The position numbers and the translations under genes were made by a program. Below, piece after piece: positions 8,069 to 28,681 of a stretch of DNA of 64,000 nucleotides. How positions within the stretch are numbered: position 1 is the first letter of the stretch; each line of letters starts with the position of its first letter. Origin of the DNA: Paludibacteraceae bacterium (GTDB taxonomy: Bacteria; Bacillota; Clostridia; Lachnospirales; Lachnospiraceae); assembly GCA_963628035.1 (NCBI GenBank), contig CAVGED010000015.1:1397-65396 (forward strand), in the 5' to 3' direction. A model generated the notes under the pieces. It ran no database searches, was not told the DNA's origin, and saw nothing but the letters and a program-made list of their open reading frames with translations.

Positions 8069-8132
8069 AACTTTCCTCCTGTTTTTTGTTGGTTTTCCTT
8101 GCTTAAGTTTGTTTTTAGTTTGCTTTAGGCTT

Positions 8133-8161
8133 ATTATAATACATCAAAAGAGACAAGTCAA
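8133..8161 (-). promoter_or_regulatory. sigma-A type promoter TTGACT-17-TATAAT upstream of the aldolase/shell operon
   Basis: Reverse complement reads TTGACT tgtctcttttgatgtat TATAAT. About 65 nt upstream of the aldolase ATG. Confidence 0.65.
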
Positions 8162-8188
8162 CATGTTTTATGTGGTTTTTTGTTGTTT

Positions 8189-8980
8189 TTATCCGCCGAT
8201 CTGTCCCTTTAGTCCTACGCAGTTTACTTCTTCCAGAAGTATCTGCATATGCTCCTTGTCCGGCGGAAGCGCATCCCCCATGAGATATTCCCGCCCAAGG
8301 CCGGTATACTTGTCCTGTCCGAGCCGATGATACGGCAGCAGATGCATTTGTTCTACCCCCTTTAAGGTGGCTGCGTACCGGGCGATGGCACGGATCTCCT
8401 CCGGCGTATCATTAAAGCCCGGAATCACCGGAACGCGAATGATCAGCTCCGTGCTGCTGGCTGCGATCCGTTTTGCATTTTCCAGCATAAGCTCATTGCT
8501 CCTTCCGGTAAACAGCTCATGCTTCTTCGGATCCATGTGCTTAATATCCATCAGATAGAGATCCAGATTCGGCAGATAGCGTTCTATCGTCTCGAACTTC
8601 GCGCAGCCCATAGACTCCATGGCTGTGTGATAGCCTTCCTCCTTCAGTCCATGCAGCAGCGCTTCTCCGAAATCCGGCTGGCAAAGCGCTTCTCCGCCGG
8701 AAAGCGTCACGCCTCCGCCGCTCCTCCGATAGAATGTCCGATCCTGGGATATCTCCAGAAGAACCTCTCCTACCGTCACGTCCCGGCCGATGGTCTTCTC
8801 CTTTCCGTCCACCACCATAGTCTCAATCTCATAGTGCTGTGACTCTGGATTGCAGCACCAGCGGCAGTGCAGTACGCATCCCTTGAAGAATACAATGGTC
8901 CGTATCCCCGGTCCGTCATGAACGGAAAATTTCTGGATGTCAAAAATCCTTCCTTTTACATTTCTATATTCTCTGTCCAT
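8189..8980 (-). CDS. glycyl-radical enzyme activating enzyme (radical SAM)
   Basis: 263 aa. CVLHCRWCCNP (CxxxCxxC) cluster. Abuts the GRE gene with no intergenic gap. Confidence 0.9.
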   Translation of the reverse strand: MDREYRNVKGRIFDIQKFSVHDGPGIRTIVFFKGCVLHCRWCCNPESQHYEIETMVVDGKEKTIGRDVTVGEVLLEISQDRTFYRRSGGGVTLSGGEALCQPDFGEALLHGLKEEGYHTAMESMGCAKFETIERYLPNLDLYLMDIKHMDPKKHELFTGRSNELMLENAKRIAASSTELIIRVPVIPGFNDTPEEIRAIARYAATLKGVEQMHLLPYHRLGQDKYTGLGREYLMGDALPPDKEHMQILLEEVNCVGLKGQIGG

Positions 8981-11512
8981 TTAAAAACCCTGCTCCGTTC
9001 TTCGGATGATATCGTCCTGCAGTGACTTAGAAAGCGTCGTGAACAGCGCACTGTAGCCTGCCACACGCACTACCAGGCCTTTATACTTGTCCGGATTCTT
9101 CTGGGCATCCAGAAGCGTTTCCCGATCCACCACATTGAACTGCATATGGCTTCCCTTCTGATCGAAGTACCCCCGAACCAGAGCCACGAAATTCTCCAGC
9201 CCCTTCTGTCCTGCCAATGCCGACGGATGGAACTTCTGATTAAACAGCGTTCCGTTGGAGGCTATGTAATGATCCAGCTTTGACACGGAATTAGCCGCCG
9301 AAGTGGGTCCGTGGGTATCCTTTCCCGCGGAAGGTGATACACCGTCTGCCACCGGCGTGTTAGCGTACCGTCCGTCCGGCGTAGCTCCGGTCTGTGCTCC
9401 CAAAGGCACATTGGCCGACACCGGATACAATCCTGCCTGGAACTGTCCGCCCCGCGGATTCCTGTATTTTTCCAGAGGACGTGTGTAGGTATAAGCCGCA
9501 TCCCTGGCCATTGCATCCACCTGTGGGATGTCGTTGCCGAACTTCGGTGCTTCGGACAGTAGCTCGCGAATCTCTTCGTAGCGCTCACGGTTTTTGCTGT
9601 TCTCTTCCTGAACCATCGCTGTCACTGCACCTGCGATCTGCTCCATATCGGAAGCTGTCACGCTCCTGCCATTTTCTGCGATCTCACCTACAATTCTTGC
9701 CGTGATCTCCTTTACGGAATCCTCCGAAAGACCTTTCCCGAAATTATGCTCCAGTGCGGCCTTCAGCTCTTCCATAGTAATCTTCTTCTGCTCATAGACC
9801 AGCGTCTTGATCGCATATAAGGAATCCGCCACATTCGCAATGCCAAAGCCCTGCGGCCCGGTAAAGTTATAAACAGCTCCGCCCTCCTGGACGCTCTCTC
9901 CTCTGCCGATGCAATCCTCCACCATACCGGAAAGGAATGGAAGCGGGCAGCGCTCTCTGTGCGCCATATCGATGGCATTATCCGCGTTGACCATCAGAGA
10001 GATCATGTACTCCATCTGGGTTTTATAAGCATCATAGAACTCCTGAAAGCTCTCCATCCCAGTCACATCGCCGGTCTCTCTTCCTATCTGTTCATTCTTG
10101 TCCCAGCCGTTGGAAAACACCAGCTCCAGAGGTCTGCACATATTGAAAAATGCTGCGTCATGCCAGCCGTCCGTCTTCCCGGACTTCTGGGGTTCTACAC
10201 ATCCGATGATGTTGTATTCTCTGGCATCCTGCAAGGTCAGCCCCCGGCTCATCAGTGCCGGAATGATCACTTCATCATTATAGTAGGCCGGCAATCCGAT
10301 CCCGGTTCTGGTCAGCTCCGCTGCCTTCAGCAAAAGCTCCTGGGGGCTCTTGTTCCACACCCGGATTGACAGGGATGGCTGTGGCAGGAACACATGATGA
10401 CTGGCCTCAATACACATAAAGGAAAGGTCATTGGTCACATCCCCCCCGTCCTTATCCTGGCCGCCTACGATCAGGTTCTGGAACATACTGTAGCCGGCGA
10501 AGCCTTCTGCGCTGGCCGCATCCCTGGCTTTATTGAGGTCGTTGAGCTTCACCCAGACGCAGTCGATAAGCTCCTGTGCCTCCTCTATTGTGATCCTTCC
10601 GGCATCCATATCCTTCTTATAATAAGGATACATATACTGGTCAAACCGTCCCGGAGAGATGGAGTGCCCGCTGGACTCCACTTGAAGCAACAGTTGTACG
10701 AACCAGAAGGACTGACAAGCCTCCCAGAAAGTGGTCGCTCCCTTTTCTGGCACATTTCGACAGTTTTTCGCGATCATCAGAAGCTCCTGCTTTCTTGCCG
10801 GATCTGACTCCTTTGCCGCCTCTGTCTCTGCCAGCGCCGCATAGCGCCTCGCATATGTAATGGCCGCATCACAACTTATAATGACCGCCTGCAGGAACTG
10901 GGAACGTCTGCAGTAATCCGCATCGCCCACATTCATAGCTTCCAGTGCCTTAACAGCTCTCTGACGTATTCCGGAGAATCCCTCCTTTAGCACCTCGCCG
11001 TAATTCACTGTCACATGGCCGATTCCGTTGTAGAAATAATTGCCGGGCGTGAAGATATTGTGAGCGATCGCATCCCTGGCCTCAGGTGCCATATACGATT
11101 CGGCTAATTCGCTGGTAGTTCTGCCCTTCCAGTAAGGATAAACCCGGCGGAGTGTCTCCTTGGTCTCTTCCGAGATATGGAATGGATCTGCCGATCTCGT
11201 CTCGATGGTATCAAATTCCTTCTCCAACCATTCCCAGGAGAATTCCGGGAACACCTGGCAGCTTCTGGGAGCTTTGGTACTGCTCCCCACCACAAGCTCC
11301 TCCGGCCGGATGGTAATAGGCAGCCCTTCGCATATATGCGCGAAGGCTTTGGCTCTGCGCATGATGATAGGTTCTCCCTCTGTGGCCTGATAGGACTCAG
11401 TCAACAGTACAGCGCGGTCAGCCTCGATCTGCGGCATATTTTCGAACAGATGCTCCACCAGTCGCTGGATACGAGGAGACTTCGTGATCTCTCCATCGTA
11501 GTATTCCGTCAT
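8981..11512 (-). CDS. glycyl radical enzyme, probable B12-independent 1,2-propanediol dehydratase
   Basis: 843 aa. Thiyl-Cys loop IIGCVEPQ. C-terminal glycyl radical motif VVRVAGYSALF. Substrate assigned from context only (rhaA, rhaB, aldolase, pduP, pduL, BMC shell). Confidence 0.8.
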   Translation of the reverse strand: MTEYYDGEITKSPRIQRLVEHLFENMPQIEADRAVLLTESYQATEGEPIIMRRAKAFAHICEGLPITIRPEELVVGSSTKAPRSCQVFPEFSWEWLEKEFDTIETRSADPFHISEETKETLRRVYPYWKGRTTSELAESYMAPEARDAIAHNIFTPGNYFYNGIGHVTVNYGEVLKEGFSGIRQRAVKALEAMNVGDADYCRRSQFLQAVIISCDAAITYARRYAALAETEAAKESDPARKQELLMIAKNCRNVPEKGATTFWEACQSFWFVQLLLQVESSGHSISPGRFDQYMYPYYKKDMDAGRITIEEAQELIDCVWVKLNDLNKARDAASAEGFAGYSMFQNLIVGGQDKDGGDVTNDLSFMCIEASHHVFLPQPSLSIRVWNKSPQELLLKAAELTRTGIGLPAYYNDEVIIPALMSRGLTLQDAREYNIIGCVEPQKSGKTDGWHDAAFFNMCRPLELVFSNGWDKNEQIGRETGDVTGMESFQEFYDAYKTQMEYMISLMVNADNAIDMAHRERCPLPFLSGMVEDCIGRGESVQEGGAVYNFTGPQGFGIANVADSLYAIKTLVYEQKKITMEELKAALEHNFGKGLSEDSVKEITARIVGEIAENGRSVTASDMEQIAGAVTAMVQEENSKNRERYEEIRELLSEAPKFGNDIPQVDAMARDAAYTYTRPLEKYRNPRGGQFQAGLYPVSANVPLGAQTGATPDGRYANTPVADGVSPSAGKDTHGPTSAANSVSKLDHYIASNGTLFNQKFHPSALAGQKGLENFVALVRGYFDQKGSHMQFNVVDRETLLDAQKNPDKYKGLVVRVAGYSALFTTLSKSLQDDIIRRTEQGF

Positions 11513-11581
11513 TTTTTCACATCCTTTCCGATTTTATTTGTTTTTGTTTGTTTTTATTTGTTTTATGTTCGTTTCACATTC

Positions 11582-11610
11582 ATTATACGTCTGTTTTTCT
11601 GATACGTCAA
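11582..11610 (-). promoter_or_regulatory. sigma-A type promoter TTGACG-17-TATAAT upstream of the GRE gene
   Basis: Reverse complement reads TTGACG tatcagaaaaacagacg TATAAT. It is followed by an A-rich leader of about 60 nt and a GGAAAGGA RBS. Confidence 0.6.
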
Positions 11611-11710
11611 TAGGATTTCAACAGATATACAACATATATTCCATCAAAAATTCCCGGCGCGATTATCGGGATACTATAATACACACCGGGATTTTTTACC
11701 ATTTTATGAT

Positions 11711-12970
11711 TTATCTCTTGGAGAGAACCTCTTTCTCGTACTTCTTGATCTCTTCAAACCAGGCAGTGTCTCCGGCTACGCCGCAGCGGTCACAGTATTC
11801 TGCCCACACATCGCCGAAGGGATAGGTCTTCATCTCCTCCTGCATTACCATCAGCTCTGTCATCTGATTGGTATCCTGAAGCTCGGCAAGCTTCTCATTG
11901 GGCGTGCAGAGCGCCATCAGCAGTGCCTTCTGCCAGCTACGGAAGCCAACGGTCCAGGCAGAGATACGGTTGATGCTGGCATCGAAGTAATCCAGCGCCA
12001 TGTATACGCGACCCAGAGCGTTATTGCGAACGATCTCCTTGGCCATCTCTCTGGTCTCATCGTCAAACAGTACCACATGGTCGCTGTCCCAGCGGATGGG
12101 ACGTGTAATATGCAGTGCGATCTCCGGGAAGAAGCACAGAAGCGCCGGAATCTTATCGGAAACCACCTCGGTGGGATGATAATGTCCGTTGTCCATCAGC
12201 GGCATACACTTTTCCTTGTGGGCAGCTGCGAAGCTTAAGGTAAACTCAGCACTTCCAACGGTGTAAGCTTCCACGCCGATACCAAACACCTTGGACTCCA
12301 CGCAGGGCTTTACCTTGTTAAAATCATACGGCTCGGACAGGATCTGCTCGATGGAATCCTTATAGCGCATTCTGGGACCCATACGGTCAGCCGGGATATC
12401 CTTGAAGCCATCACCAGTCCAGATATTCATGACACAGGGGATTCCTGTCTCCTCTGCAAAATACTGGGAGATGCGGATGCAGGCCTTGCCATGCTCGATC
12501 CAGAACTTCCGTGTCTCCTCATCCGGGCTTGACAGGGTCAGACCATCCTTCACTCTCGGATGTGAGAAATAGGTGGGGTTAAAGTCGATTCCCATATGAT
12601 GCTTCTTGGCGAATTCCACCCATTTTGCGAAATGCTTCGGCTCCAGCTTGTCCCGATCCACAAACTCTCCCGGCTCGAAGATGGCATAGCTGGCATGAAG
12701 GTTCAGCTTTGCTTTTCCAGGCACAAGGCTTAATACCTTCTCCATATCCTCCATCAGTTGTTCCGGTGTCCTAGCCTTGCCGGGGTAATTGCCGGTAGTC
12801 TGGATACCTCCGGTCAGTGGGCCGTCATGGTCAAAGCCGGTGACATCGTCTCCCTGCCAGCAATGAAGGGAAACCGGAAGTCCCTTCAGTGTCTCGATGG
12901 CTTTCTCAGTGTCTACGCCCAGCCTGGCATAGGCTTCCCGGGCAGCTTCGTAACGTTCTTTGTTCGTCAT
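11711..12970 (-). CDS. rhaA: L-rhamnose isomerase
   Basis: 419 aa. SLHCWQGDDVTGF motif and overall length typical of RhaA. Confidence 0.85.
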   Translation of the reverse strand: MTNKERYEAAREAYARLGVDTEKAIETLKGLPVSLHCWQGDDVTGFDHDGPLTGGIQTTGNYPGKARTPEQLMEDMEKVLSLVPGKAKLNLHASYAIFEPGEFVDRDKLEPKHFAKWVEFAKKHHMGIDFNPTYFSHPRVKDGLTLSSPDEETRKFWIEHGKACIRISQYFAEETGIPCVMNIWTGDGFKDIPADRMGPRMRYKDSIEQILSEPYDFNKVKPCVESKVFGIGVEAYTVGSAEFTLSFAAAHKEKCMPLMDNGHYHPTEVVSDKIPALLCFFPEIALHITRPIRWDSDHVVLFDDETREMAKEIVRNNALGRVYMALDYFDASINRISAWTVGFRSWQKALLMALCTPNEKLAELQDTNQMTELMVMQEEMKTYPFGDVWAEYCDRCGVAGDTAWFEEIKKYEKEVLSKR

Positions 12971-13083
12971 GATTGATCTCTCCTTATATTATATAAATTT
13001 TCATATCTGTTACTGCAAGAATTACTATATATAAAATTATAAAATTCCACGGATTGCTTCGCTTTCACACGCTTCAATATGTA

Positions 13084-14481
13084 TCAATACTTCTTTATTT
13101 CAAAGGAATGATAGATGCAGGTTCTGGCTTCCTCTACGGTCTTGAACTCGCCCTCTTTCAGCATCTGGGCTGTGAGGTTTCCGATGGCGGTAGCCTCGGT
13201 GGGGCCTGCATGGACTTCCTTGCCGGTGTACTTAGCGGTCAACTGGTTCAGATAAACGGCATTGGCACCGCCGCCCACCACATGGATACGGCTGTAGGTC
13301 CGCCCCATGATATGTTCGATCTGCTGTGCGGTTCTGGCATAGCATTCTCCCAGGCTGTTGTAGATAACTGCTGCGATCTGTCCCGGCGTTTCCGGCACTG
13401 CCTGATCGGTATCCCGGCAATAGCGCTGAACCTCAGCGATCATATTGGCCGGAGCCAGGAAGCAATCGTCGTCCACTTCCACTCTGGACTTGAAATCGTC
13501 ACACCCGGCAGCCATGTCGCAGAGCTCCGCAAAGGAATACTTGTTATCAAGCTCCTTCTTGACATTCTGGATCATCCAGAGTCCCATGATATTCTTCAGA
13601 TAACGGAAACGGTAATCGTAGCCGCCCTCGTTGGTGATATTCGCTTTCTTGCTCTCCATAGAGCAGTTTGCCTTCTTCGTCTCGATTCCCATCAGAGACC
13701 AGGTTCCAGAACTGATGTAAAGGAAATCATCATCGTTGGCGGGTACGCTTAAGACGGCGGAAGCAGTATCGTGTGTTCCCGGCAGCACCACATTGCAGTT
13801 AAACCCAACCGTTTCCTGAATCTCCGGTTTAAAGCTGCCCACCAGAGTTCCCGGCGTATGGATCGGAAGGAACATCTCACGATTATAGCCCAGCATGTCG
13901 ATGAGTTCATAATCCCAGTCCTTTGTCTCCGGATTCACCAGCTGTCCGGTGGTGGCCATGGTATACTCCTGCATCTTCACACCGGTCAGCAGGAAATGGA
14001 AGTAATCCGGTGTCATCAGCATGGCCTTCGCCTTGTCCATATATTCCGGATGTTCACACTTTACTGCCATCAACTGATAGATGGTATTGAAGATTGCCTT
14101 CTGGATGCCGGTCCGTGCGTACAGATCATCCTCGGAGATGATCTCATAGACCTTGTCATCCATTCCCTTAGTCCTGCTGTCACGGTATCCCACAGGGTCA
14201 CCCAGAACCTGATCGTTTTCATCAAGGAGAACGAAGTCAACACCCCAGGTGTCGATTCCCATGCTCACCGGGATCTTGCCGATCTCCTTGCACTTCTTAA
14301 TCCCAGCCAGAATATTCGCAAAAAGTACTTCGTGATCCCAGCAGAGGTGTCCGTTTTTCTCCTTCATTCCGTTCTCAAAACGATAGATTTCTTCCAGCTC
14401 CATCTTGCCATCCCGGATGCTCCCCAGGATATGACGGCCGCTGGAAGCGCCAATGTCAATGGCTAAATAATAGTTGCCCAT
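13084..14481 (-). CDS. rhaB: rhamnulokinase (FGGY family)
   Basis: 465 aa. AIDIGASSGR N-terminal and HVVGGGANAVYLNQ C-terminal FGGY motifs. Adjacent to rhaA. Confidence 0.85.
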   Translation of the reverse strand: MGNYYLAIDIGASSGRHILGSIRDGKMELEEIYRFENGMKEKNGHLCWDHEVLFANILAGIKKCKEIGKIPVSMGIDTWGVDFVLLDENDQVLGDPVGYRDSRTKGMDDKVYEIISEDDLYARTGIQKAIFNTIYQLMAVKCEHPEYMDKAKAMLMTPDYFHFLLTGVKMQEYTMATTGQLVNPETKDWDYELIDMLGYNREMFLPIHTPGTLVGSFKPEIQETVGFNCNVVLPGTHDTASAVLSVPANDDDFLYISSGTWSLMGIETKKANCSMESKKANITNEGGYDYRFRYLKNIMGLWMIQNVKKELDNKYSFAELCDMAAGCDDFKSRVEVDDDCFLAPANMIAEVQRYCRDTDQAVPETPGQIAAVIYNSLGECYARTAQQIEHIMGRTYSRIHVVGGGANAVYLNQLTAKYTGKEVHAGPTEATAIGNLTAQMLKEGEFKTVEEARTCIYHSFEIKKY

Positions 14482-14755: not shown

Positions 14756-14902
14756 ATGAACATGAGAAAATCTATAATTGCTTTCGCAATGATCGCGGCA
14801 ATTCTTGCCGCAGGCATCCTGCTTCCGGCATCTGACAATGCATGTAGCGCTGACGATACGGTTGTTGCCTATTTCCCTTGGGACATGATTGAGGGCACTT
14901 AA
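14756..14902 (+). CDS. unannotated 48-aa secreted pro-peptide, candidate signalling peptide precursor
   Basis: GGAGGTG RBS 7 nt before the ATG. MNMRKSIIAFAMIAAILAAGILLPASDNACSADDTVVAYFPWDMIEGT has a basic n-region, a hydrophobic h-region and a polar C-terminal part. It is below the 60-aa ORF-track cutoff. Its stop codon overlaps the stop codon of the convergent TPR regulator. Confidence 0.6.
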   Translation: MNMRKSIIAFAMIAAILAAGILLPASDNACSADDTVVAYFPWDMIEGT

Positions 14903-15816
14903 TCAAGTTCCAGATGATACTTAATTGCTATTTCATCCTTTATATGCTTTGCTGACCCCTCTTTCTCGCATATATTGAAGAGCGTAACCGCCTGATGAAA
15001 TAGCAATTTTGCTTCATCCTGTTTATGCATCTCATAAGCTGCACAGGCCTTATTACTAATCAGATACGGCAGTACTGCCAGCTTATTATGTTTTACACAA
15101 TAATGAATCCCCACACTGCTGATCCGATATGCTTCCCAGTGGTTTCCCACCTCTTTTCCGATTCTCCAGGCGATGTTGTTTAGAATCATCGGATACTTCT
15201 TCGCCTTCTCTTCCTCATCGATCACATGCTCTTCCAGATAATCCTTCAATTCATACAGCAATTTCAAGCCGCGCTCCTGCTGTCCCATATTGTAGTATTC
15301 CAGAGCAATGCTGTTGAGAACCGTGATCTCATCGAAGGTAAGCAGCCGGTTCCTGATATTTTTCCGTTCCTCAAAGTCCGACATTGTCAGTCGGATCGCC
15401 TCCAGCAGCTTCTCTAAGACCACCTCACTTGGCTCGCCATTCCGCTTCATCATACTGGCCTTGGCAAAGATCAGATACTGCTTCTCCAGGACATCCGAGT
15501 CGCTTATTCTGCTCTCCAGTTCCTGTATCAGAGCATCTACACTGGTATAATCCTGACTCTCCAACCTCCAGGCCAATTCCTGTATCAAGCGGTAGATCTC
15601 CATCTCCCGCTTGCTGACAAATGCACTGTAAATGGACATCGACATGCCCATCCGCTGCATGAGTGCGTCAAAGACACGTTTGCTTGGAACCTGTGAGTTG
15701 TTCTCGATCCGCGACAAGGACGATGTACTGCAGATGCCAAAGCTCAGCGCCTCCTGCGAATAGCCACGGGCTTCCCTGGTATCAAAGACCATGTCTCCAA
15801 TCGTGTAATTCGCCAT
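14899..15816 (-). CDS. XRE-family HTH regulator with C-terminal TPR-like domain (RNPP/Rgg-like architecture)
   Basis: The N-terminus MANYTIGDMVFDTREARGYSQEALSFGICSTSSLSRIENN is an XRE HTH. The remaining roughly 230 aa are helical-repeat (TPR-like). The start was moved to the ATG at 15816, which has a purine-rich RBS; the track start at 15846 has none. Confidence 0.75.
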   Translation of the reverse strand: MANYTIGDMVFDTREARGYSQEALSFGICSTSSLSRIENNSQVPSKRVFDALMQRMGMSMSIYSAFVSKREMEIYRLIQELAWRLESQDYTSVDALIQELESRISDSDVLEKQYLIFAKASMMKRNGEPSEVVLEKLLEAIRLTMSDFEERKNIRNRLLTFDEITVLNSIALEYYNMGQQERGLKLLYELKDYLEEHVIDEEEKAKKYPMILNNIAWRIGKEVGNHWEAYRISSVGIHYCVKHNKLAVLPYLISNKACAAYEMHKQDEAKLLFHQAVTLFNICEKEGSAKHIKDEIAIKYHLELD

Positions 15817-16142
15817 TCTTCCACTTCCTTTTCCTAAGTATTTCATTCATGGCAACCGGAAGCTCAAAAATCGTGCTTCCTATTGTTGAAAATTTTTTCA
15901 ACCGCCATTATACGAAAAAAAGGACTGTATAAGTGCAAATTTTGCCCGATTTGCAAATCGCATTGGCTATTCGTATATTTTATGAAGTTTGTCCATTCAA
16001 CAATGCAAAATATTTTTTCTGCTTGTCAGGCTTGTCTTTACAGTGTCAAATTTTAGTGGTATCATTACAGAAAGAGGAAGTATAAGGCATTGCATTTAAA
16101 TCGCATGACAAAAAGTACAATCACTAGAACAGGAGGTACACC

Positions 16143-16688
16143 ATGCCACTACCCAAAGAACAAATCCACACCACTGAAGATATCTACGCCCTACCGGAAG
16201 GACAGCGTGCGGAGCTGATCGACGGCCAAATGTACATGATGGCCCCGCCAAACACAAACCATCAGCGCCTTGTTATGAACCTCTCTGCCGAAATACGGGA
16301 TTACATTAGAAGAAATCATGGATCCTGTGAAGTATTTCCTGCTCCATTTGCCGTTTTTCTGAATGAGGACGATACAAATTACGTTGAACCGGATATCAGT
16401 GTCATTTGTGACAGGGATAAACTTACAGACAACGGCTGTGTCGGTGCTCCGGATTGGATCATCGAAATTGTTTCTCCTTCAAGTACCAGAATGGATTATT
16501 TCGTAAAGCTATTCAAGTATCGTACTGCCGGTGTCCGTGAATATTGGATTGTCAACCCCATGAAAAAGACTGTCCAGACCTACTCCTTTAAGGGAGAAGA
16601 AGACTCTAACCAGTATTTCTTTCAGGATGACATTCCATGTACCATTTATAAAGACTTAATCATCAATATTGATCGCCTGCTGCAGTAA
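16143..16688 (+). CDS. Uma2-family (DUF820) PD-(D/E)XK-like endonuclease
   Basis: 181 aa. The pattern ...RAELIDGQMYMMAPPNTNHQRL...EPDISVICD...PDWIIEIVSPSS is typical of Uma2 proteins. AGGAGG RBS. Confidence 0.75.
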   Translation: MPLPKEQIHTTEDIYALPEGQRAELIDGQMYMMAPPNTNHQRLVMNLSAEIRDYIRRNHGSCEVFPAPFAVFLNEDDTNYVEPDISVICDRDKLTDNGCVGAPDWIIEIVSPSSTRMDYFVKLFKYRTAGVREYWIVNPMKKTVQTYSFKGEEDSNQYFFQDDIPCTIYKDLIINIDRLLQ

Positions 16689-16699
16689 GAGTGTACTGC

Positions 16700-17665
16700 T
16701 CACCGCCACTCGTCCCGGTACTTCTTCGGTGTCATTCCATACCGTTCCCGGAAGATCCGGTGGAAATAGCTGGTGTTGTCATAGCCAACTGCCAGAATGA
16801 TCTCCTCCACCGTTAGTCTGGTTGTCGTCAGCAAAAAGGACGCCTGATTCAGACGCTTCTGCTGCAGAAGCTGCTGGAAATTCATGTCGGAGTTTTTCTT
16901 GATAAAGCGGCTTAGTCCTGTCACAGACTGATTCATCAGCTCCGCCAGTTCCGTCAGCGTCCCTTCTTTATAATTCTCCTCAATATAGCGCAGCACCGTA
17001 AACATCATATTCTGCTCGTACTGCCTCGGATTACTCCCTTCGATACGATCCGTATAGTTGGCCAGCTGCAGCATCAGCAGCCCCATGGTGGTCTGGTTGA
17101 TATTGCGGACATTTCCCTGCTTATGTACCAGCGACCAGATCATGTTCTCAATGAGATTCTGTACCGGAAGAACATCAGCCACCTTGAAATAGATGTAATC
17201 CCTTCCGTCACCATTCTGCTTTAAGCTTCCCACAAGAAAGTCCCGGATCACATTCTCCTCCTCCACCATCTCGAAGGCTTTGTCGAAGAATTCCGGCAGC
17301 ACAATAAAATTCACAGCGATATCGTCCTCTCTTGCCGGATAGATCTCATGCGAAGTATTCCGGTTTAAGAACAACAGATCTCCTTTATTCAGAACGACCT
17401 TCTCGCTTCCGTTTATGATGTGAGTGGTCGTTCCCGAACACATGTAAATGATCTCGATATAGTCGTGGCTATGCCTTGGAAAATGGATAAAGCGGGTATG
17501 TATACGGATGTCGATGAGTTTTCCCCGCTCCAGCATACGCTTTCCGTTGATGACAAACTCCCGCCGCCCCGTATAGATACTCCGTTCAACCTCCGTCTTC
17601 CCCTCCAGGATATCCTGCTCCTCCGGGGAGATTTCTTTTAATTGTGCCAATAATTCCTGCTGCAT
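16700..17665 (-). CDS. AraC-family regulator (N-terminal cupin, C-terminal double HTH), 12 nt downstream of jetC
   Basis: 321 aa. Cupin-like FPRHSHDYIEIIYMCSGTTTH. C-terminal ...GYDNTSYFHRIFRERYGMTPKKYR AraC signature. GAGGATAAGGG RBS. Confidence 0.85.
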   Translation of the reverse strand: MQQELLAQLKEISPEEQDILEGKTEVERSIYTGRREFVINGKRMLERGKLIDIRIHTRFIHFPRHSHDYIEIIYMCSGTTTHIINGSEKVVLNKGDLLFLNRNTSHEIYPAREDDIAVNFIVLPEFFDKAFEMVEEENVIRDFLVGSLKQNGDGRDYIYFKVADVLPVQNLIENMIWSLVHKQGNVRNINQTTMGLLMLQLANYTDRIEGSNPRQYEQNMMFTVLRYIEENYKEGTLTELAELMNQSVTGLSRFIKKNSDMNFQQLLQQKRLNQASFLLTTTRLTVEEIILAVGYDNTSYFHRIFRERYGMTPKKYRDEWR

Positions 17666-17677
17666 AACCCTTATCCT

Positions 17678-20600
17678 CTACTCTCCATCCTCCAGCTGCT
17701 CAAAATCCTTCTTCTCAAACTCCTGAATGGAGATACTCTTCTTATTCGGATTGGCAAAAACAAAGGTCTTGTCCACATTTTCCAGATAATTCTGGATCTT
17801 GTCATTGGTGGCACTGATGATGACCTGGAAGCCAAGGCTTCGGATCAGGCCGATACAGCTGGCCACCTTCTCGCCGTCCATCTTGGAAAAAGCCTCGTCC
17901 AGCACCACCAGGCGGATGGTCGGATTCCGAAGGAGCCTTGACGGCATATTGATACGATAGGCCTGGGCGAAGCTGGCAAGAAGCGCTACGTACAGGGGGT
18001 TCTGACCCTCACCGCCGGAATTCTTCTTAAGCATCTTAGAGAGCTTCAGCTTAATCTGCCCCTCCTCGCTTCGGATGATCTGCTGCATATCGAAGGACAG
18101 ATAGGTGCGGTAATCCGCATACTTCTCCATGTTCCGTCTGGCTTCCTCCTGCTCCTCATTGCTGGCATCCGCCGGCGGGATGAACACGCTCATCAGCTCG
18201 TTTAACAGCTCCCCGTACTTCTGTCCATGCTCTATGGAGAAGAGATTCATCTGTTCCTCCATATTGTCTGACAACTGATCCGGGCTGATCTCCAGGGACT
18301 TATCCATGAACATGTCATAATACTTTCCATCTTCCCCGTGGTTCCTGGTAAAAACAAACTGATACTTATCTTTACCGAAATCCAGCTTGTCGATGATCCG
18401 GTTCAGCTCATCCTTCCGATCCATGGCGTCCTTGATGGCACTGCGGATCTTGTAGATAAAGTCATTCTGGAAATGCTGCACGGCGGACTTGGCCTGTTCC
18501 CTGGCCAACTGCTGGTACTTCGAAAGCTCCGTAAACTGCAATTCCTCAAGAACTCTGTCATATTCCCGGTTATCCTGACTAAACTGGGAGAATCCGCGGT
18601 TGGGGTACGCCTTCAGGTAGCTTCCTCTTGTCTCCGCCAGTCGCTGGAACAACTGTTCCTTCTCCTGTCCGGCATTTTCCTTCTTGGCAATAAAGCGTCG
18701 CTTCAACTGTTCAGAGGAGAAACGGTTCTCCTTAGCGACAATCTCAGAAAATTCCTGTTCCAAGGCTTCGACCAGCGTCCCGGAAGACTCCTGTCCCGGC
18801 TCCTGTTCCGGTGCCGCGCCGGACTTCTCCACCATAGGAATCACATTCTCTCTGAATTCCTTCTCCAACTGGGTCAGAAGTTCAATCCCCTCGATGCGCT
18901 TCTGCTTGTCTTCCTCCAGGGTGCGCTTTAAGAGTGCCGTTTTTTCCAGATGACCTTTGAGTCTCTCATCGGCTCTGCGAAGCTCTTCCTCCACATTCTC
19001 CTTCTGCTGCTTCAGTCTGGCCACATCCTTCTTCTGAAGCTCCAGGATCCGCTGCTCCAGACGTTGCTTCTCCTTTTCCTTGGCCTTGCTTTCCCGGATA
19101 TCGGAAAGCCATTCCATATATTCGTAAGGTTCCTTTCCCAGCTGCTCCATGGAGAGCATTGCCACGAATTCGCCCTGCTGTGACAGCTTGGGGGAAAGCT
19201 TTGATTCCAGCCCGGAAAGCTGCTTCTTCAAGAGGGAGATCCGGCGCTTCAAGCTCTCCGCACCGATATAGGCTCCTCTGGTGTAATTATGCGGATTCAT
19301 ATGGGACAGCTTGTAGCCCTGGTACAGCAGGCAGTTGTCCATGACAGCCACCGGATACTCCCGCATCTCCTCAATGGTATCGCACTTTATCACGTTTCCA
19401 AGGAGATAATTCAGATAGCTCTGCACATAGGATTCCTTTGCCTTCACGGCTTCGGACAGAGCATTCTCCCGCACCCGATGCTCCTTCTGAAGAATTTTCT
19501 CTGTATCCAGAACCGCTGTCCGGTAATATTTGCTGCTGTCCAGCTCCCGATAGATCTCCATGGCATCCCTGGCATACTTAGGCTCCACCACCAGCAACAG
19601 CTTGTTGTTGCCCATGTAGCCCTCCACCGCGTTGCGCCAGCGCTCTTCCTTAATATCGATAAGATCCGCCAGAACTTCCACGCGCACAGCCTTACCGAGG
19701 CGCTTCACCAGTCCCTGGTACAGGAACTGTCTGGCCTCCGTGACCTCCCTGGGATAGACCTTGCTTCCGGTGTGAAGCTCCGCAAGCTCTCCCTGGATCT
19801 GCTTCATCTCTCCCCGCAGGCTGCGTATCTCTCCATCCAGTTCGTTCTTCTCCTCCTTCACCTCATTCATCAGCTGGGCGATGTCAGCCTTCAATTCGGC
19901 AAGCTGATCATCCTCGATCTCATAGGAAGCAAACCGCTTGATGTTCCAGAGGATGGCATTGCTGGCCATGTCATTGTCATTCCACGCCTTTAATCGTCCC
20001 GCTGTCTCATCCCAGCGCGCCCGGCTCTTCTCCATGCGCTCCAGCAGCTGATTCACGCCTTCCAGACGCTCCGCAGCCTCCTGATAGCCGGTCTCCGCGA
20101 TCAGTCGGATCAATTCCTCCTTCTTTCCGTTCAGTTCCTCCTTCTCCGCCTCCAGTCCGGTCAGGCTTTCCGCCAGTGCTTCAAGATCCTTCTCATGCAG
20201 ATCGGCCTTCTGCTCCAACTCTGCCAGCGCCTCCTTCTGCTGAAGAATCTCGAATTTTCTTGCGAAATAGTCGTATTTTTCCAGTTCCTTCTGCTTATCC
20301 TCCACCAGCAGATACTTCTCCTGCACCTCGGTAAGGGCATCAATTTCCTCCGCCGTATCCGCGATCTTCTTCTGCATACGGCCATACTGCATGACGCTCT
20401 CCTGCATATCCTCGATATGGATATCCTGCTCCATGCAGATATATTCCTTCACGAAGTCCTCCAGCCTGCTGTTCATCTTGAAGGGAATCGCCCGCTTAAA
20501 CAGCATGGGGAACTTCTCCATGTCCAGTCCGCCTAGATAGATATCGTAGAGTCTGCGCCGGAAGGACTCATTCCGGGATGTCGTATAGAAATCTGTCCGG

Positions 20601-21115
20601 TCGAAGCTGCGGGCCAGATATTCCTTGACCTCCTCCGTAGACATGACCCTCCGGTCTATCCGGTAATCGTTTTTCAAAAGCTCGCCCTTGTGCCAGAAAA
20701 AGCACCGTGCGATCTCATTGGTAGCTGTCTCCACATCAAAGACTACGCCCACGCACTGACATTCTCCCGTGTCGCTGTCCTCAAGCTCCAGCACGATGGT
20801 ACTGGAAAAATTCCTGTTTCGCAGGTAAGCACTCTCATTATTGTCCTCGATGTTGATCATACCGCGCAGATATTCGATAAGGTTTCGGTCGGAATCCTCC
20901 GCCGCGGCCTTATTGAAGAAGCCCCGGCCATCGGTATTTGCATACAGCACGATCTGCAGCGCGTCGATGATGGTGGACTTTCCGCTTCCGGAATGTCCGG
21001 TAAAAAAGTTGATCTCCTTGTGAAAGGAAAGTATCTTTTTATCAATATAATGCCAGTTATTGAGGCACATCCGGGACAGCGCCTCAAATCGCTGTCGGTT
21101 CGTCTTCGTTTCCAT
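17678..21115 (-). CDS. jetC: JetC/MksB-like SMC-family ATPase
   Basis: 1145 aa from the ATG at 21115 (GAGGAGG RBS). LNNWHYI plus Walker A GHSGSGKST. Long E/K/L/Q-rich coiled-coil region. Signature SGGEGQ. Walker B VVLDEAF. The track start at 21229 lies inside jetB and lacks an RBS. Confidence 0.8.
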   Translation of the reverse strand: METKTNRQRFEALSRMCLNNWHYIDKKILSFHKEINFFTGHSGSGKSTIIDALQIVLYANTDGRGFFNKAAAEDSDRNLIEYLRGMINIEDNNESAYLRNRNFSSTIVLELEDSDTGECQCVGVVFDVETATNEIARCFFWHKGELLKNDYRIDRRVMSTEEVKEYLARSFDRTDFYTTSRNESFRRRLYDIYLGGLDMEKFPMLFKRAIPFKMNSRLEDFVKEYICMEQDIHIEDMQESVMQYGRMQKKIADTAEEIDALTEVQEKYLLVEDKQKELEKYDYFARKFEILQQKEALAELEQKADLHEKDLEALAESLTGLEAEKEELNGKKEELIRLIAETGYQEAAERLEGVNQLLERMEKSRARWDETAGRLKAWNDNDMASNAILWNIKRFASYEIEDDQLAELKADIAQLMNEVKEEKNELDGEIRSLRGEMKQIQGELAELHTGSKVYPREVTEARQFLYQGLVKRLGKAVRVEVLADLIDIKEERWRNAVEGYMGNNKLLLVVEPKYARDAMEIYRELDSSKYYRTAVLDTEKILQKEHRVRENALSEAVKAKESYVQSYLNYLLGNVIKCDTIEEMREYPVAVMDNCLLYQGYKLSHMNPHNYTRGAYIGAESLKRRISLLKKQLSGLESKLSPKLSQQGEFVAMLSMEQLGKEPYEYMEWLSDIRESKAKEKEKQRLEQRILELQKKDVARLKQQKENVEEELRRADERLKGHLEKTALLKRTLEEDKQKRIEGIELLTQLEKEFRENVIPMVEKSGAAPEQEPGQESSGTLVEALEQEFSEIVAKENRFSSEQLKRRFIAKKENAGQEKEQLFQRLAETRGSYLKAYPNRGFSQFSQDNREYDRVLEELQFTELSKYQQLAREQAKSAVQHFQNDFIYKIRSAIKDAMDRKDELNRIIDKLDFGKDKYQFVFTRNHGEDGKYYDMFMDKSLEISPDQLSDNMEEQMNLFSIEHGQKYGELLNELMSVFIPPADASNEEQEEARRNMEKYADYRTYLSFDMQQIIRSEEGQIKLKLSKMLKKNSGGEGQNPLYVALLASFAQAYRINMPSRLLRNPTIRLVVLDEAFSKMDGEKVASCIGLIRSLGFQVIISATNDKIQNYLENVDKTFVFANPNKKSISIQEFEKKDFEQLEDGE

Positions 21116-21707
21116 CGCTCTCCTCCTCAAAGGATTGTAGTAATTCCTGCACCCGATCACCGAAAAGCACCATGCTGATCGAGGGATATATGATAAGGCG
21201 GCTCTCGCTCTCCAGCTCATCCAGGGCATCTAAGATCTCGATGATCTGATATTTTTTCAGCAGAGTCAGTGTCCGGCGAACCTCTGTTGGCGAAGGCCGT
21301 TCCTTCAGGAGACGAAAACTTCCCATCCGCTCGTTCAACTCGCCCAGGGTGGTATAGATATTCACGCTGGTGGAGGCCTGAGACATCTGCTCGTCATAAA
21401 TGAGCTTTAAGAGCAGCAGATAGATCGTTGCCAGCTTGGTAAGCCGCAATGCCTGAGCATCCTCCCCCACCAGATAGATCACACCGGTTGGCGTGTTCTC
21501 CTTAAGCTCCATGCCAGCCACCTGAAAATATTCCTGCAAGAATTCCAGATGTCTGCAGCAGATACGGTACTCCTTATTAAAAACAAAGCGACTTCCCTTC
21601 TTGTCATATTTCCGTTCCAGCAGGAAGGTCTGCGCAAGCAGCGTGCGTATGATTCCTGTCAGCTGCTCTTTTTCCTCGTCTGAAAGCTCTTCTATATATG
21701 TTATCAT
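21084..21707 (-). CDS. jetB: JetB/MksE-like (DUF4194-type) protein
   Basis: 207 aa with an acidic C-tail. Its size, its position between the JetA-like and SMC-like genes, and its 32-nt overlap with jetC all fit. Family assignment is by architecture and pattern only. Confidence 0.65.
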   Translation of the reverse strand: MITYIEELSDEEKEQLTGIIRTLLAQTFLLERKYDKKGSRFVFNKEYRICCRHLEFLQEYFQVAGMELKENTPTGVIYLVGEDAQALRLTKLATIYLLLLKLIYDEQMSQASTSVNIYTTLGELNERMGSFRLLKERPSPTEVRRTLTLLKKYQIIEILDALDELESESRLIIYPSISMVLFGDRVQELLQSFEEESDGNEDEPTAI

Positions 21708-21776
21708 CTTGACTGCCCTTTCTCTATATTATCGTTCTTTCCATTCCACAGATACCGCTCGTCCACACAATGCGCG

Positions 21777-23141
21777 CTATCCCACATCCTTCTTTATAAA
21801 TGTAAGCTTCGGATAGATATAGGAACCATTATCTACGATCTCCTCCGCGCCGACATCCACCTGGAAGCTGCTGTTCCGCTTGATGGCATAATCATATGCC
21901 AATATCAACTTCTCAAAGTCTTCATCCGTCTTCACGGCTTCCTCGTCGATCTGGACATTCCCGGCCGGATCCATGCGCGCCTCCAGATATTCCTCCAGCT
22001 GTTTTCTGGTAAAACGGTGCTGGATCTTATTGAGCCGCAGAATCTCCTCCTTGGAAAGTTCTTCCCTCTCCTCCTCCGGCTCCAACTGATCGATGAAGTT
22101 CTTCCGGGGGGAGCGTTTCTTATAGAGGGACTTTTCCGCCAGAAGCTGCTGGCTGGACAGATTCATGATAGCCGCCGTCTGCTCCAAGGCCTGCGTGTTA
22201 TCCGTCAGTTCAGACAGATGATTCAGAAGTTCAATGATCAGCCCCTTCATGCTGCCTTCCCCGTTCAGAAGATAGTTTAGTCGCACCACGGTAGCCTTCA
22301 CATACTTCATATTTTCCTTATCCATGTTCGCAATGCGCCGCTCAATATCGTCAAAGCCCCGCTGGATGCGTTCCAGATTCTCCAGGATCTCCGTCTCGCT
22401 GACCTTTCCATGCTCCTTCTTCAGTATCTGCTGCATCCAGGCCTCATCCTGCTGCATCTGTCGGATCCAGTTCTTGATGTCTGTCTTATAGATATAGAAG
22501 TTGTCACTGGTCTTTAAGATGTGATATTTTTTTTCAATAATCTGCGACACATAGCCTTCCAGGTGTTCCTTCAAGAGATCCCCGTAAAAATTCTTCTCCA
22601 GCAGACCGCCAAAGAATCGATCCATATTGTGGAGCATGTTCTGAAGCGAGCGGTTCAACTGCCTGGTATTCACCAGGGCTGTCTTTAGGAGTCGGTAGCT
22701 GGCCCGCTTGTCATTCTGCAAGGAAAACAGGATAGCATAGATATTCTGGATATAGATCTCCGTAACATCCAGTTCATCATCGGTGAGCCGTTCAAAGGCT
22801 TCGATGAAGATAGCCGCATAATCCGGGATGATGATATTGGTCACCTGGGCGTAATAATCCTCCAGCTTCTTCAGCCACTGTGCCCGAAGGAGCCAGTTGA
22901 GGATCCGGTTGGCCGGCGTCTCTAAAAGATCCAGCTCCGTCTCATCCTCCTCCCTGGCCATGGTCAGCTTCTTCTGGGAGAAATAATCGCTGAGGATACG
23001 AATGCAGGACTCTTTACTCAAAAAATAACTGTTGTATTGATATTCTTCGTTTATGATCAGCAGCGCTTCTATGTAAGTATCCCGGTTCGGTGACCGGAAC
23101 AGACCGTAGAAGCGTTCGGGAATCTGATAATGGAATTCCAT
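21777..23141 (-). CDS. jetA: JetA/MksF-like kleisin-type protein
   Basis: 455 aa from the ATG at 23141 (MEFHYQIPERFYGLF...). All-helical composition and first gene of the jetABC-like operon. The track ORF extends to 23486 only because the upstream 54-bp repeat is stop-free in frame. Confidence 0.6.
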   Translation of the reverse strand: MEFHYQIPERFYGLFRSPNRDTYIEALLIINEEYQYNSYFLSKESCIRILSDYFSQKKLTMAREEDETELDLLETPANRILNWLLRAQWLKKLEDYYAQVTNIIIPDYAAIFIEAFERLTDDELDVTEIYIQNIYAILFSLQNDKRASYRLLKTALVNTRQLNRSLQNMLHNMDRFFGGLLEKNFYGDLLKEHLEGYVSQIIEKKYHILKTSDNFYIYKTDIKNWIRQMQQDEAWMQQILKKEHGKVSETEILENLERIQRGFDDIERRIANMDKENMKYVKATVVRLNYLLNGEGSMKGLIIELLNHLSELTDNTQALEQTAAIMNLSSQQLLAEKSLYKKRSPRKNFIDQLEPEEEREELSKEEILRLNKIQHRFTRKQLEEYLEARMDPAGNVQIDEEAVKTDEDFEKLILAYDYAIKRNSSFQVDVGAEEIVDNGSYIYPKLTFIKKDVG

Positions 23142-23157
23142 AACTGTCCTTTCTATA

Positions 23158-23436
23158 AAGCTTCGCGCTTCGGGAAACCCAAACTCCGCTTCGCTACGTT
23201 TGGGTAGCGGAAAGCTTCGCGCTTCGGGAAACCCAAACTCCGCTTCGCTACGTTTGGGTAGCGGAAAGCTTCGCGCTTCGGGAAACCCAAACTCCGCTTC
23301 GCTACGTTTGGGTAGCGGAAAGCTTCGCGCTTCGGGAAACCCAAACTCCGCTTCGCTACGTTTGGGTAGCGGAAAGCTTCGCGCTTCGGGAAACCCAAAC
23401 TCCGCTTCGCTACGTTTGGGTAGCGGAAAGCTTCGC
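23158..23436. repeat. perfect tandem repeat, 54-bp unit x 5.2
   Basis: The unit aagcttcgcgcttcgggaaacccaaactccgcttcgctacgtttgggtagcgga starts at 23158, 23212, 23266, 23320 and 23374, with a partial sixth copy from 23428. The copies look identical by eye. Confidence 0.95.
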
Positions 23437-23444
23437 TTTCCTTC

Positions 23445-23473
23445 ATTATAAACAACTTTACCTCTGCTGGCAA
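23445..23473 (-). promoter_or_regulatory. sigma-A type promoter TTGCCA-17-TATAAT reading into the tandem repeat and jetA
   Basis: Reverse complement reads TTGCCA gcagaggtaaagttgtt TATAAT. The predicted transcription start falls at the edge of the repeat array. Confidence 0.55.
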
Positions 23474-23575: not shown

Positions 23576-24844
23576 ATGTCAATGGAACATTCATTCAATA
23601 TTTTGAACATCTTATATTATCTCGCCATCATTCTGGTAGCGACAAAGGGGTTGGGTGTACTGGCCAGGCGTTGCGGACTGCCTCAGGTGGCAGGCATGGT
23701 CATCGCAGGACTGCTGGTAGGGCCGGCGCTGTTCTCCGGGCTGGACGGCAGCTTTCACGGATTAACGAATCCCTCGGCGGAAGAAATGGATGTGCTAAAT
23801 ACCTTTTCCCAGATCGGGGTCATAATGATTCTATTCACCAGCGGGTTGGAAACTGACCTGAAGGAACTGAAACGCAGCGGTCTGGCGGCGACGCTGATCG
23901 CGCTGTCGGGGGTGCTGGTGCCTATCGGGCTGGGCTTTGTAGGATCCATGTTGTTTATGGACGGGTTCGGCGCCGGATACTGCCACGAGAAAATGCTCAA
24001 CGGTCTGTTCGTCGGCTGCATTCTGGCGGCTACCAGTGTGGGCATCACCGTGGAGACCCTGCGGGAACTTGGAAAGCTTAATACCCGCGTCGGCACCACC
24101 GTGCTCAGTGCCGCCATCATCGACGATGTGATCGGCATTATCGCCCTGAGCCTTATCACCAGTCTGAACGGCGGCAGCAGCGTATGGATCACCCTGTTGA
24201 AAGCAGTTGGGTTCTTCGTATTCTCCATCGGGCTGGGGCTACTCATCCGCTATCTGTTCAAGAAGTTGGAAAAGAGCCATCCCCACACACGGCGCACCGG
24301 GATTTTTTCACTGGCAGTGGCTTTTTTCTATGCATTCTGTGCAGAAAAATACTTTGGCATCGCCGCCATCACCGGCGCCTATATGGCAGGGATTATGCTC
24401 AGCGGTATGGACGATACCGGATTTGTGGATCGGCGTATCGAGATTAGCGAGTATATGTTTTTCGCTCCGCTGTTTTTCGCCTATATCGGAATCAGCGCTG
24501 ATTTCAGTCGGTTCCACTTGGGGGATCTGGTATTCGGGCTGACCTTTGTGGCGCTAGGCATTATCGGAAAGATTGTGGGCTGTAGCGGTATGGCACGGCT
24601 GTGCCGGTATGATAAGAAGGAGGCTCTAACCATCGGCTGTGGGATGATTGCCCGGGGCGAGGTGGCACTGGCGGTGTATACCACCGGTCATGCTCTCATC
24701 TATACGGCGGCAGACGGCACGCTGCTGGGTATTGACCCGCTGGTGGGCATCATCCTGTTGATTATCCTCACCTCCATCCTCTGCCCGGTGTTGCTGAAAC
24801 TCCTGTTCCGGCACAATGGAGCGTCTCAACCTGCAAAAGCGTAA
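23576..24844 (+). CDS. cation:proton antiporter (CPA2, NapA/Kef-like)
   Basis: 422 aa and polytopic. N-terminal LAIILVATKGLGVLARRCGLPQVAGMVIAGLLVGP is typical of CPA2 exchangers. Confidence 0.8.
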   Translation: MSMEHSFNILNILYYLAIILVATKGLGVLARRCGLPQVAGMVIAGLLVGPALFSGLDGSFHGLTNPSAEEMDVLNTFSQIGVIMILFTSGLETDLKELKRSGLAATLIALSGVLVPIGLGFVGSMLFMDGFGAGYCHEKMLNGLFVGCILAATSVGITVETLRELGKLNTRVGTTVLSAAIIDDVIGIIALSLITSLNGGSSVWITLLKAVGFFVFSIGLGLLIRYLFKKLEKSHPHTRRTGIFSLAVAFFYAFCAEKYFGIAAITGAYMAGIMLSGMDDTGFVDRRIEISEYMFFAPLFFAYIGISADFSRFHLGDLVFGLTFVALGIIGKIVGCSGMARLCRYDKKEALTIGCGMIARGEVALAVYTTGHALIYTAADGTLLGIDPLVGIILLIILTSILCPVLLKLLFRHNGASQPAKA

Positions 24845-28643: not shown

Positions 28644-28681
28644 CGCTACGTTTGGGTAGCGGAAAGTGCTTTGCACTTTCC
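28644..28681. repeat. single dispersed copy related to the 54-bp tandem unit
   Basis: Shares the 23-nt core cgctacgtttgggtagcggaaag with each tandem unit. It is followed by a perfect 9-bp hairpin, ggaaagtgc-ttt-gcactttcc. Confidence 0.75.

Follow-up and report, generated by a model that had tools for sequence, protein, structure and literature searches.

Wadjet is understood as an extrusion-then-cleavage machine, of which JetD is the executing part. In complete systems, JetD uses its aCAP domain to dock on the head of JetC and cleaves the U-shaped DNA that stalled motors hold, with residue F919 of Escherichia coli JetC inserted into the pocket of the JetD aCAP domain (10.1101/2023.11.03.565488). 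Plasmid control by MksBEFG and EptABCD requires both MksB and the nuclease MksG (PMC10123090), and it has been proposed that nuclease-free SMCs such as MksBEF and MukBEF originated from defence systems (PMC10586767). This study focused on a jetA-jetB-jetC operon in a 64-kb stretch of contig CAVGED010000015.1 (the window) from a gut bacterium of the Lachnospiraceae, in which jetC is followed by the gene of an AraC-family regulator and not by jetD. Full-text searches of the literature turned up no account of type I loci that naturally lack JetD, nor of how often they occur; the one statement that comes near is a remark on MksBEF of Pseudomonas aeruginosa. The new element reported here is that jetD has been cleanly lost again and again in loci where jetABC stays under undiminished constraint; the idea that the AraC-family protein is coupled to the SMC complex, raised in a first-pass annotation of the same DNA, is unsupported.

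The analysis covered the 64-kb window of the source genome and as much as about 10 kb to either side of related loci, with domain and family calls from Pfam, PADLOC and NCBIfam, repeats from TRF, RNA families from Rfam, and promoters from a consensus scan. The features of the operon, all on the minus strand, are as follows, with motif conservation taken from 38 JetC homologues that include both JetD-positive and JetD-negative loci.

21777 to 23141, minus strand: jetA (kleisin), 454 amino acids (aa); Pfam PF18982 JetA, E=1e-133; PADLOC JetA1, 1.7e-208, full length
21084 to 21707, minus strand: jetB (KITE, DUF4194), 207 aa; PF13835, E=1.6e-20; PADLOC JetB1, 1.6e-94
17678 to 21115, minus strand: jetC (SMC-like ATPase), 1145 aa; PADLOC JetC1, E=0, 1528 bits
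20972 to 20998, minus strand: JetC Walker A, GHSGSGKST, aa 40-48; invariant in the 38 homologues
18002 to 18019, minus strand: JetC ABC signature, SGGEGQ, aa 1033-1038; invariant in the 38 homologues
17888 to 17908, minus strand: JetC Walker B, VVLDEAF, aa 1070-1076; six of seven residues invariant, the second Val at least 90% conserved
17666 to 17677, minus strand: jetC-araC junction, 12 nt, at the site where jetD begins in JetD-positive relatives

The first-pass annotation had described three minus-strand genes, the JetC motifs and a 32-nt overlap of jetB and jetC (21084-21115), all of which held when the sequence was checked. Its naming of the products as JetA, JetB and JetC was borne out by the profile searches, which placed them in PF18982 and DUF4194 and in the PADLOC families JetA1, JetB1 and JetC1. 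JetB has an acidic C-terminus, and JetC contains the Pfam domains AAA_29, SMC_hinge and SbcC_Walker_B, with LNNWHYI at aa 18-24. A profile built from the 38 JetC homologues matched the E. coli JetC structures 8as8/8bfn (E=7e-20) and also the solved structure of P. aeruginosa JetC. Three of the components that define type I Wadjet were therefore found, namely the JetA kleisin (PF18982/DUF5716), the JetB KITE protein (DUF4194), and a JetC with intact Walker A, signature, Walker B and hinge. By these matches, jetA, jetB and jetC are classified as clear type I Wadjet genes. The fourth, a gene for the Toprim nuclease JetD (DUF3322/DUF2220, PF09983) in the operon after jetC, was not found within the window, araC occupying that place instead. 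An exact-sequence look-up of JetB returned only contigs of 5.5 kb or less, broken at a tandem repeat or inside jetC.

JetD was sought with a hidden Markov model (HMM) of 22 JetD proteins taken from related loci, and by tblastn with the same proteins. Neither detected it in the 64-kb window, as first noted from the letters alone: the best open reading frame (ORF) gave E=0.12 with the HMM, and tblastn gave no match. Nor did tblastn detect any remnant of JetD at the 12-nt jetC-araC junction. A genome scan with JetC supplied 80 related loci, mostly from Lachnospiraceae with others from further Clostridia, and jetD was intact in 19 of these, present as fragments in four, and absent from 47, while the remaining 10 sequences ended too soon after jetC. 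Where intact, jetD mostly lay no more than about 150 nt from the jetC stop, or overlapped it. The 47 JetD-negative loci had no JetD-like sequence in the fetched DNA (up to about 10 kb per side). JetD-negative loci occur in the complete genomes of Hungatella hathewayi DSM 13479 (NZ_CP102274.1) and Lacrimispora sp. HJ-01 (NZ_CP173277.1). The four remnants, truncated or degraded, lie directly after an intact jetC (L029:13359-14144, L051:7808-8065, L062:13436-14551 and L078:11555-12418) and look like intermediate stages of loss. In a neighbour-joining distance tree of JetC, drawn without support values, JetD-positive and JetD-negative loci were interleaved throughout.

Three sets of close relatives show what is missing:

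JetD-positive L038 against JetD-negative L044 and L057: about 1.3 kb with jetD is reduced to about 150-160 bp
JetD-positive L036 against JetD-negative L048: about 1.2 kb with jetD is reduced to about 100 bp
JetD-positive L042 against JetD-negative L024 and L030: about 2.9 kb (jetD and about 1.6 kb more) is reduced to about 75-100 bp

In all three comparisons the flanks on both sides are collinear, with 80-91% DNA identity across the aligned stretch. The genes found right after jetC in JetD-negative loci are unrelated housekeeping genes, encoding GlpP, purine nucleoside phosphorylase, an ABC ATPase, a GNAT protein, aspartate dehydrogenase, a zinc-ribbon protein, citrate synthase, and others, and clustering of all flanking ORFs to find an alternative fourth gene gave no family enriched with JetD-negative loci. 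On this evidence, jetD has been deleted many times independently without replacement by another effector.

Two groups of loci have arrangements of their own. In two sister JetD-negative loci, a small Metallophos_2 (calcineurin-like phosphoesterase) gene stands directly after jetC (L045:13390-14028 and L064:3958-4527), with a 4-nt overlap in L045. This is the one suggestive case of another fourth gene, confined to these two loci, and the gene may be an effector in place of JetD or may lie there by chance. In a Dorea-like clade (L066, L069, L071, L072, L074 and L076), jetA is separated from jetBC by 2.4 kb in L069 and by about 9 kb in L074, and was not found within 10 kb in L066, L071, L072 and L076, while jetC still gave ratios of nonsynonymous to synonymous substitution (dN/dS) of 0.04-0.10. 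This clade has either lost jetA or acquired an insertion of variable DNA that parts jetA from jetB.

The selection acting on the retained genes was estimated from pairwise dN/dS (Nei-Gojobori). The JetD-less 12-nt junction is common to the window, to its conspecific L084, and to L086 (assembly GCA_965317895.1), and the loss of jetD therefore predates their divergence. Among these three, the values were as follows:

jetA: dN/dS 0.05-0.06
jetB: dN/dS 0.02-0.11
jetC: dN/dS 0.02-0.08
rhaA and rhaB (controls): dN/dS 0.01-0.06

All ORFs were full length, with dS reaching 1.2-1.3 in the deeper pairs. Across the clade, in a comparison limited to pairs at least 80% identical, jetC gave dN/dS of 0.02-0.10 between JetD-negative loci and 0.04-0.13 between JetD-positive loci, with one near-identical JetD-positive pair at 0.23 (dS 0.013). 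No sign of relaxed constraint is seen after loss of jetD, and jetABC is not decaying.

From purifying selection on jetABC as strong as in JetD-positive relatives, a selected function independent of JetD is inferred. We consider it fairly probable that the locus is a type I Wadjet operon minus jetD, in which jetABC has been kept for a JetD-independent, MksBEF-like, nuclease-free function. Of the three readings offered in the first-pass annotation, that of a JetD-less, condensin-like Mks system fits best. The sequence of events would begin with a type I Wadjet operon at a chromosomal site, passed on vertically, from which jetD is lost and in which jetA-jetB-jetC remain. By homology, JetA, JetB and a JetC with intact ATPase motifs would still assemble into a dimeric, ATP-driven, DNA loop-extruding motor. 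Lacking the Toprim subunit, this motor would make no double-strand cut, the defining step of Wadjet plasmid restriction. JetABC might then act as an MksBEF-like SMC that compacts or organises the chromosome, or might handle or silence small circular DNA non-destructively. The nature of this function, the assembly of the complex and its motor activity are all presumed by analogy with the characterised systems.

Several points weigh against this reading. Published reconstitutions ascribe plasmid restriction to cleavage by JetD. The region past LDFGKDKY in JetC, where the equivalent of E. coli F919 would be expected, is invariant in JetD-negative loci, and some partner could still dock there, although F919 itself was not reliably mapped. 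The examined DNA comprises 64 kb here and about 10 kb per side in the relatives, so that jetD or another nuclease might lie elsewhere in the genome. Finally, the dN/dS values are pairwise Nei-Gojobori estimates with dS near saturation in the deeper pairs. As to the mapping of F919, phmmer with the single JetC matched only a P. aeruginosa head construct, the 38-sequence profile aligned E. coli JetC only up to residue 891, and a C-terminal sub-profile missed the relevant stretch. F920, F936 and F959, aromatic residues that are candidates for the equivalent of F919, do not vary in either JetD-positive or JetD-negative loci.

The strongest competing explanation keeps the system a nuclease-dependent Wadjet: JetABC would be served in trans by JetD, or by some other nuclease, from a gene in another part of the genome, and the retained selection would follow from this. 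This is unlikely, even though jetABC is equally constrained in JetD-negative and JetD-positive loci, the head-proximal region of JetC that is the JetD dock in E. coli (10.1101/2023.11.03.565488) is invariant where jetD is absent, and the visible part of this genome amounts to 64 kb. It needs independent relocation of jetD in many lineages, whereas loss in situ is what was seen, as clean indels of jetD and as jetD fragments beside jetC (L029, L051, L062 and L078), and no other gene family is enriched near the JetD-negative loci. The two closest JetD relatives among those with sampled context also speak against a free-standing JetD: P0131 lies directly after an annotated jetA-jetB-jetC, and P0122 overlaps an upstream, unannotated partial ORF of 133 aa that was taken as the 3' end of jetC. 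Among the best 120 of 270 sister-clade JetD homologues, none was named from the JetD-negative Lacrimispora or Hungatella isolates, which is weak evidence because most database proteins are unnamed.

It is very improbable that what is left here is a defence system already dead and decaying, with jetD lost recently and jetABC intact only for lack of time. A degraded defence locus had been among the readings first offered, and the part of it that stands is that jetD is gone; the fragments in L029, L051, L062 and L078, and the displacement of jetA in the Dorea-like clade, or its absence within 10 kb of jetBC, also fit with decay. The part that fails is the degradation of what is left. The JetD-less junction is common to lineages at dS of about 1.0-1.3, in which the three ORFs are full length and under strong purifying selection (dN/dS 0.02-0.11); the more distant L093/94 (JetC 69.5% identical) retains an intact jetABC followed by araC; and the ATPase motifs are essentially invariant, with no relaxation relative to JetD-positive pairs. 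Preferred to decay, then, is the maintained, nuclease-free JetABC described above.

The gene that follows jetC heads another set of genes on the same strand:

16700 to 17665, minus strand: araC-family regulator, 321 aa; cupin and two helix-turn-helix (HTH) domains by Pfam
14899 to 15846, minus strand: HTH_3 (XRE-type) regulator, 315 aa; Pfam
11711 to 14481, minus strand: rhaB-like gene (13084-14481) and rhaA (11711-12970), the start of a rhamnose/fucose glycyl-radical microcompartment locus

The description of araC as a cupin and double-HTH gene placed 12 nt after jetC, with its own ribosome-binding site (RBS), was confirmed. The jetC stop codon TAG occupies 17678-17680, the araC ATG is at 17665, and AGAGGA lies upstream of it. 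The product matches PF12833 HTH_18 (5.9e-20), PF00165 HTH_AraC (5.2e-12), PF02311 AraC_binding (2e-10) and PF07883 Cupin_2 (6e-8), and so has the C-terminal double HTH and N-terminal cupin/AraC_binding region of the AraC/XylS family. Its best NCBIfam match is RhaS (NF010028, 9e-22), at 77.8 bits against a cut-off of 288; being far below this equivalog cut-off, and outside the RhaS/RhaR equivalogs, it is therefore not an orthologue of E. coli RhaS. It had no PADLOC match, and the exact-sequence look-up gave no record of it. No terminator-like site was found at the jetC/araC junction, and with a gap of 12 nt, read-through into araC from the jetA promoter is therefore likely.

Adjacency of jetC and araC is restricted to a narrow clade in which JetC is at least 69.5% identical, and which comprises L004 (JetC 99%), L084/85 (AraC 97%), L086-88 (AraC 89%, JetC about 83-85%) and L093/94 (AraC 78%, JetC 69.5%), jetABC being intact in the last of these. 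The gap between the two genes is 12 nt, of identical sequence, in L084, and 12 nt with a few substitutions in L086; it is 93 nt in L093. Contigs bearing close homologues of the araC product (L084-L094) gave a wider view of the context. L091/92 (AraC 76%) carry a rhamnosidase gene, araC, HTH_3, rhaB, rhaA and an aldolase gene, and continue to bacterial microcompartment (BMC) genes, and L089/90 (AraC 84%) carry rhamnosidase and GH3 genes, araC and HTH_3, after which the contig ends before rhaB. Neither pair has jet genes, and tblastn detected no jet remnants beside araC in L089-L092. Among the 47 other JetD-negative loci, none has araC after jetC, and the AraC-family matches that do occur in them are weak ones of 22-34% identity, for the most part incomplete, and none lies downstream on the same strand. 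A conserved araC-like fourth gene, for which a comparative check had been proposed, is accordingly not a general feature.

The suggestion that a ligand-sensing, DNA-binding AraC protein in the place of JetD acts as a partner of the SMC complex, or as its own regulator, is unsupported and the least probable of all. In its favour are the likely co-transcription across a 12-nt gap lacking a terminator, and an adjacency that several lineages of species rank have kept, with identities as low as 69.5% for JetC and 78% for AraC. These are outweighed by the persistence of araC with HTH_3 (and with rhaB and rhaA where the contig extends) beside rhamnosidase/GH3 genes where jetABC is absent, by the 47 other JetD-negative loci, by the variable spacing (12 nt in the window against 93 nt in L093), and by a best curated match to RhaS, a position as first gene of a locus for rhamnose catabolism, and the lack of a PADLOC match.

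Judged by this distribution, araC is independent of jetABC. Together with HTH_3, it is most likely a regulator of the adjacent rhamnose/fucose microcompartment locus that merely abuts jetC, the support for a rhamnose role being its genomic association with rhaB and rhaA. In the proposed history, araC would be the first gene of this neighbouring locus, would have reached jetC when jetD vanished, and would be neither a subunit nor a sensor of the SMC complex. We read the abutment as an accident of jetD loss beside a co-oriented neighbour. The L084 orthologues of rhaB and rhaA are annotated FGGY and PF06134 RhaA. Window ORFs from 270 to 14481 are collinear with the rhamnose/fucose locus of L084, and include genes for a pyruvate formate-lyase (PFL)-like enzyme (8981-11512), its activase (8189-8980), an aldolase and an aldehyde dehydrogenase; the putative functions of those below about 7 kb are taken from this synteny. 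In L087 and L091/92, genes for alcohol dehydrogenase and BMC shell proteins follow the rhamnose locus.

The chromosomal setting is shared with relatives at several distances. In L084/L085, which are conspecific with the window (JetC 99% identical), the upstream genes specify an asparaginase, a beta-lactamase-like protein, a BMC protein, EutP and, on the opposite strand, a Na/H exchanger. From there the order is jetA, jetB, jetC, araC, HTH_3, rhaB (FGGY), rhaA, PFL-like glycyl radical enzyme, activase, aldolase and aldehyde dehydrogenase. The window matches this order except for four strain-specific differences. The upstream genes (asparaginase, BMC and EutP) are syntenic with those of L005-L008. 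HTH_3, which is placed after araC in L084-L093, has homologues directly after jetC in L009, L010, L011 and L027, and after jetD and a HicB-like gene in L007. Within the syntenic group of L005-L011 and L027, jetD is present only in L007 and L008. Given the synteny of the upstream genes and of HTH_3 with these relatives, the jet locus is therefore taken to be a stable chromosomal site that is vertically inherited, and not a mobile defence island. The HTH_3 homologues are about 305-360 aa long, with weak TPR matches in relatives (L007:15434-16513, L009:13530-14462 and L010:13702-14625). This regulator is fast-evolving, with 35-40% identity where JetC has 60-66%, and adjoins jetC/jetD loci, or araC in jet-free rhamnose loci.

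Compared with the conspecific L084, the window shows four differences, which are the 54-bp array upstream of jetA, the jetA-jetB spacer (about 60 bp longer than in L084), an insertion with a Uma2-family gene, and the Na/H-exchanger allele. The mapped features are:

23445 to 23473, minus strand: putative promoter-like site upstream of jetA, TTGCCA-17-TATAAT, 11 of 12 consensus matches (consensus scan)
23157 to 23436, no strand: perfect tandem array of 5.2 copies of a 54-bp unit in the jetA leader (TRF, 100% matches)
15980 to 16704, plus strand: strain-specific insertion of about 720 bp with a Uma2-family gene at 16143-16688 (PF05685 Uma2, E=7e-33; PADLOC candidate PDC-S03, 1.1e-52)

The array is placed between the promoter-like site and the jetA RBS; the promoter and RBS are identical in sequence in L084. 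It is missing from L084/L085, where JetA is 98% identical, and a related unit occurs upstream of jetA in L086. With the array, the jetA leader is partly self-complementary and has a predicted fold of -130 kcal/mol (z=-4.7), and Rfam gave no match in the whole window, including this leader. The array may alter expression of jetABC. Short-read contigs L001 and L086 break inside it, and a 23-nt piece of it recurs at 28644-28666.

The insertion of about 720 bp sits exactly at the araC stop, and in L084, which lacks it, the two flanks abut. Its Uma2-family product is a putative PD-(D/E)xK endonuclease, the gene converging on araC with an 11-nt gap, and no Uma2 gene was called between araC and HTH_3 in L084 or L086. 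On the other side of the operon, the gene of the Na+/H+ exchanger (23576-24844) is divergent from jetA; L084 has another allele in this place, a gene of 422 aa, and the two share only 36% protein identity over a local alignment of 99 residues and no nucleotide match. The aligned flanks around it are 89-97% identical to L084, which suggests a local gene replacement beside the jetA promoter.

The wider claim, on which belief and doubt are about evenly balanced, is that type I Wadjet in the Clostridia of the gut, and above all in Lachnospiraceae, has time and again lost its nuclease gene alone, and that JetABC remains constrained for a cellular task that needs no JetD, for instance organising the chromosome or episomes, or controlling plasmids non-destructively. 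Some two thirds of these loci on the chromosomes of relatives are without jetD, and jetABC is nonetheless as constrained as a catabolic enzyme gene. If the claim is true, the JetD-negative lineages would show, in nature, stages along the proposed route by which a defence SMC becomes a housekeeping one such as MksBEF or MukBEF. This bears on whether JetABC can act usefully on DNA without cutting it, and on how nuclease-free SMCs could arise from defence systems. Defence-system finders presumably miss operons that lack jetD, and calls of 'incomplete Wadjet' in gut genomes should be taken neither for active anti-plasmid barriers nor for dead genes. Near-isogenic JetD-positive and JetD-negative pairs exist in L038 with L044 or L057, and in L036 with L048.

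The relationship of the locus to described systems can be summarised system by system. Like RhaS/RhaR-type AraC/XylS regulators, the window araC has a cupin sensor and two HTH domains, and it heads a co-oriented block of araC, HTH_3, rhaB, rhaA, aldolase and microcompartment genes that is conserved in relatives; it differs in the extra HTH_3 regulator between araC and rhaB. MksBEFG of Corynebacterium glutamicum and EptABCD of Mycobacterium smegmatis are homologous SMC-based plasmid defence operons, but they contain a fourth gene for the executing nuclease, which the window locus is without. With type I Wadjet/JET (JetABCD of E. coli GF4-3, P. aeruginosa PA14 and Bacillus cereus Q1), the locus shares the protein families, the gene order and the jetB/jetC overlap. 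The characterised systems, however, carry jetD right after jetC or overlapping it, and here there is none in cis, so that extrusion-then-cleavage (10.1101/2023.11.03.565488) would be impossible with the locally encoded parts, and the locus therefore falls outside the definition of a Wadjet system. The best functional analogue is MksBEF of P. aeruginosa, which is likewise a kleisin, KITE and SMC trio without the MksG/JetD nuclease; a nuclease-free operon of these three is what is present in cis here, and the same state occurs in L084, L086 and L093. By sequence, the proteins do not belong to MksF, MksE or MksB, the best matches of all three being type I Jet models, and JetB scores 25.0 bits against the cut-off of 27 for PF21980 MksE. 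The locus differs from MksBEF also in that loss of jetD is recent and recurrent within Clostridia, with JetD-positive sisters that are 80-91% DNA-identical across the aligned flanks. By analogy, the locus most probably works like the nuclease-free MksBEF.

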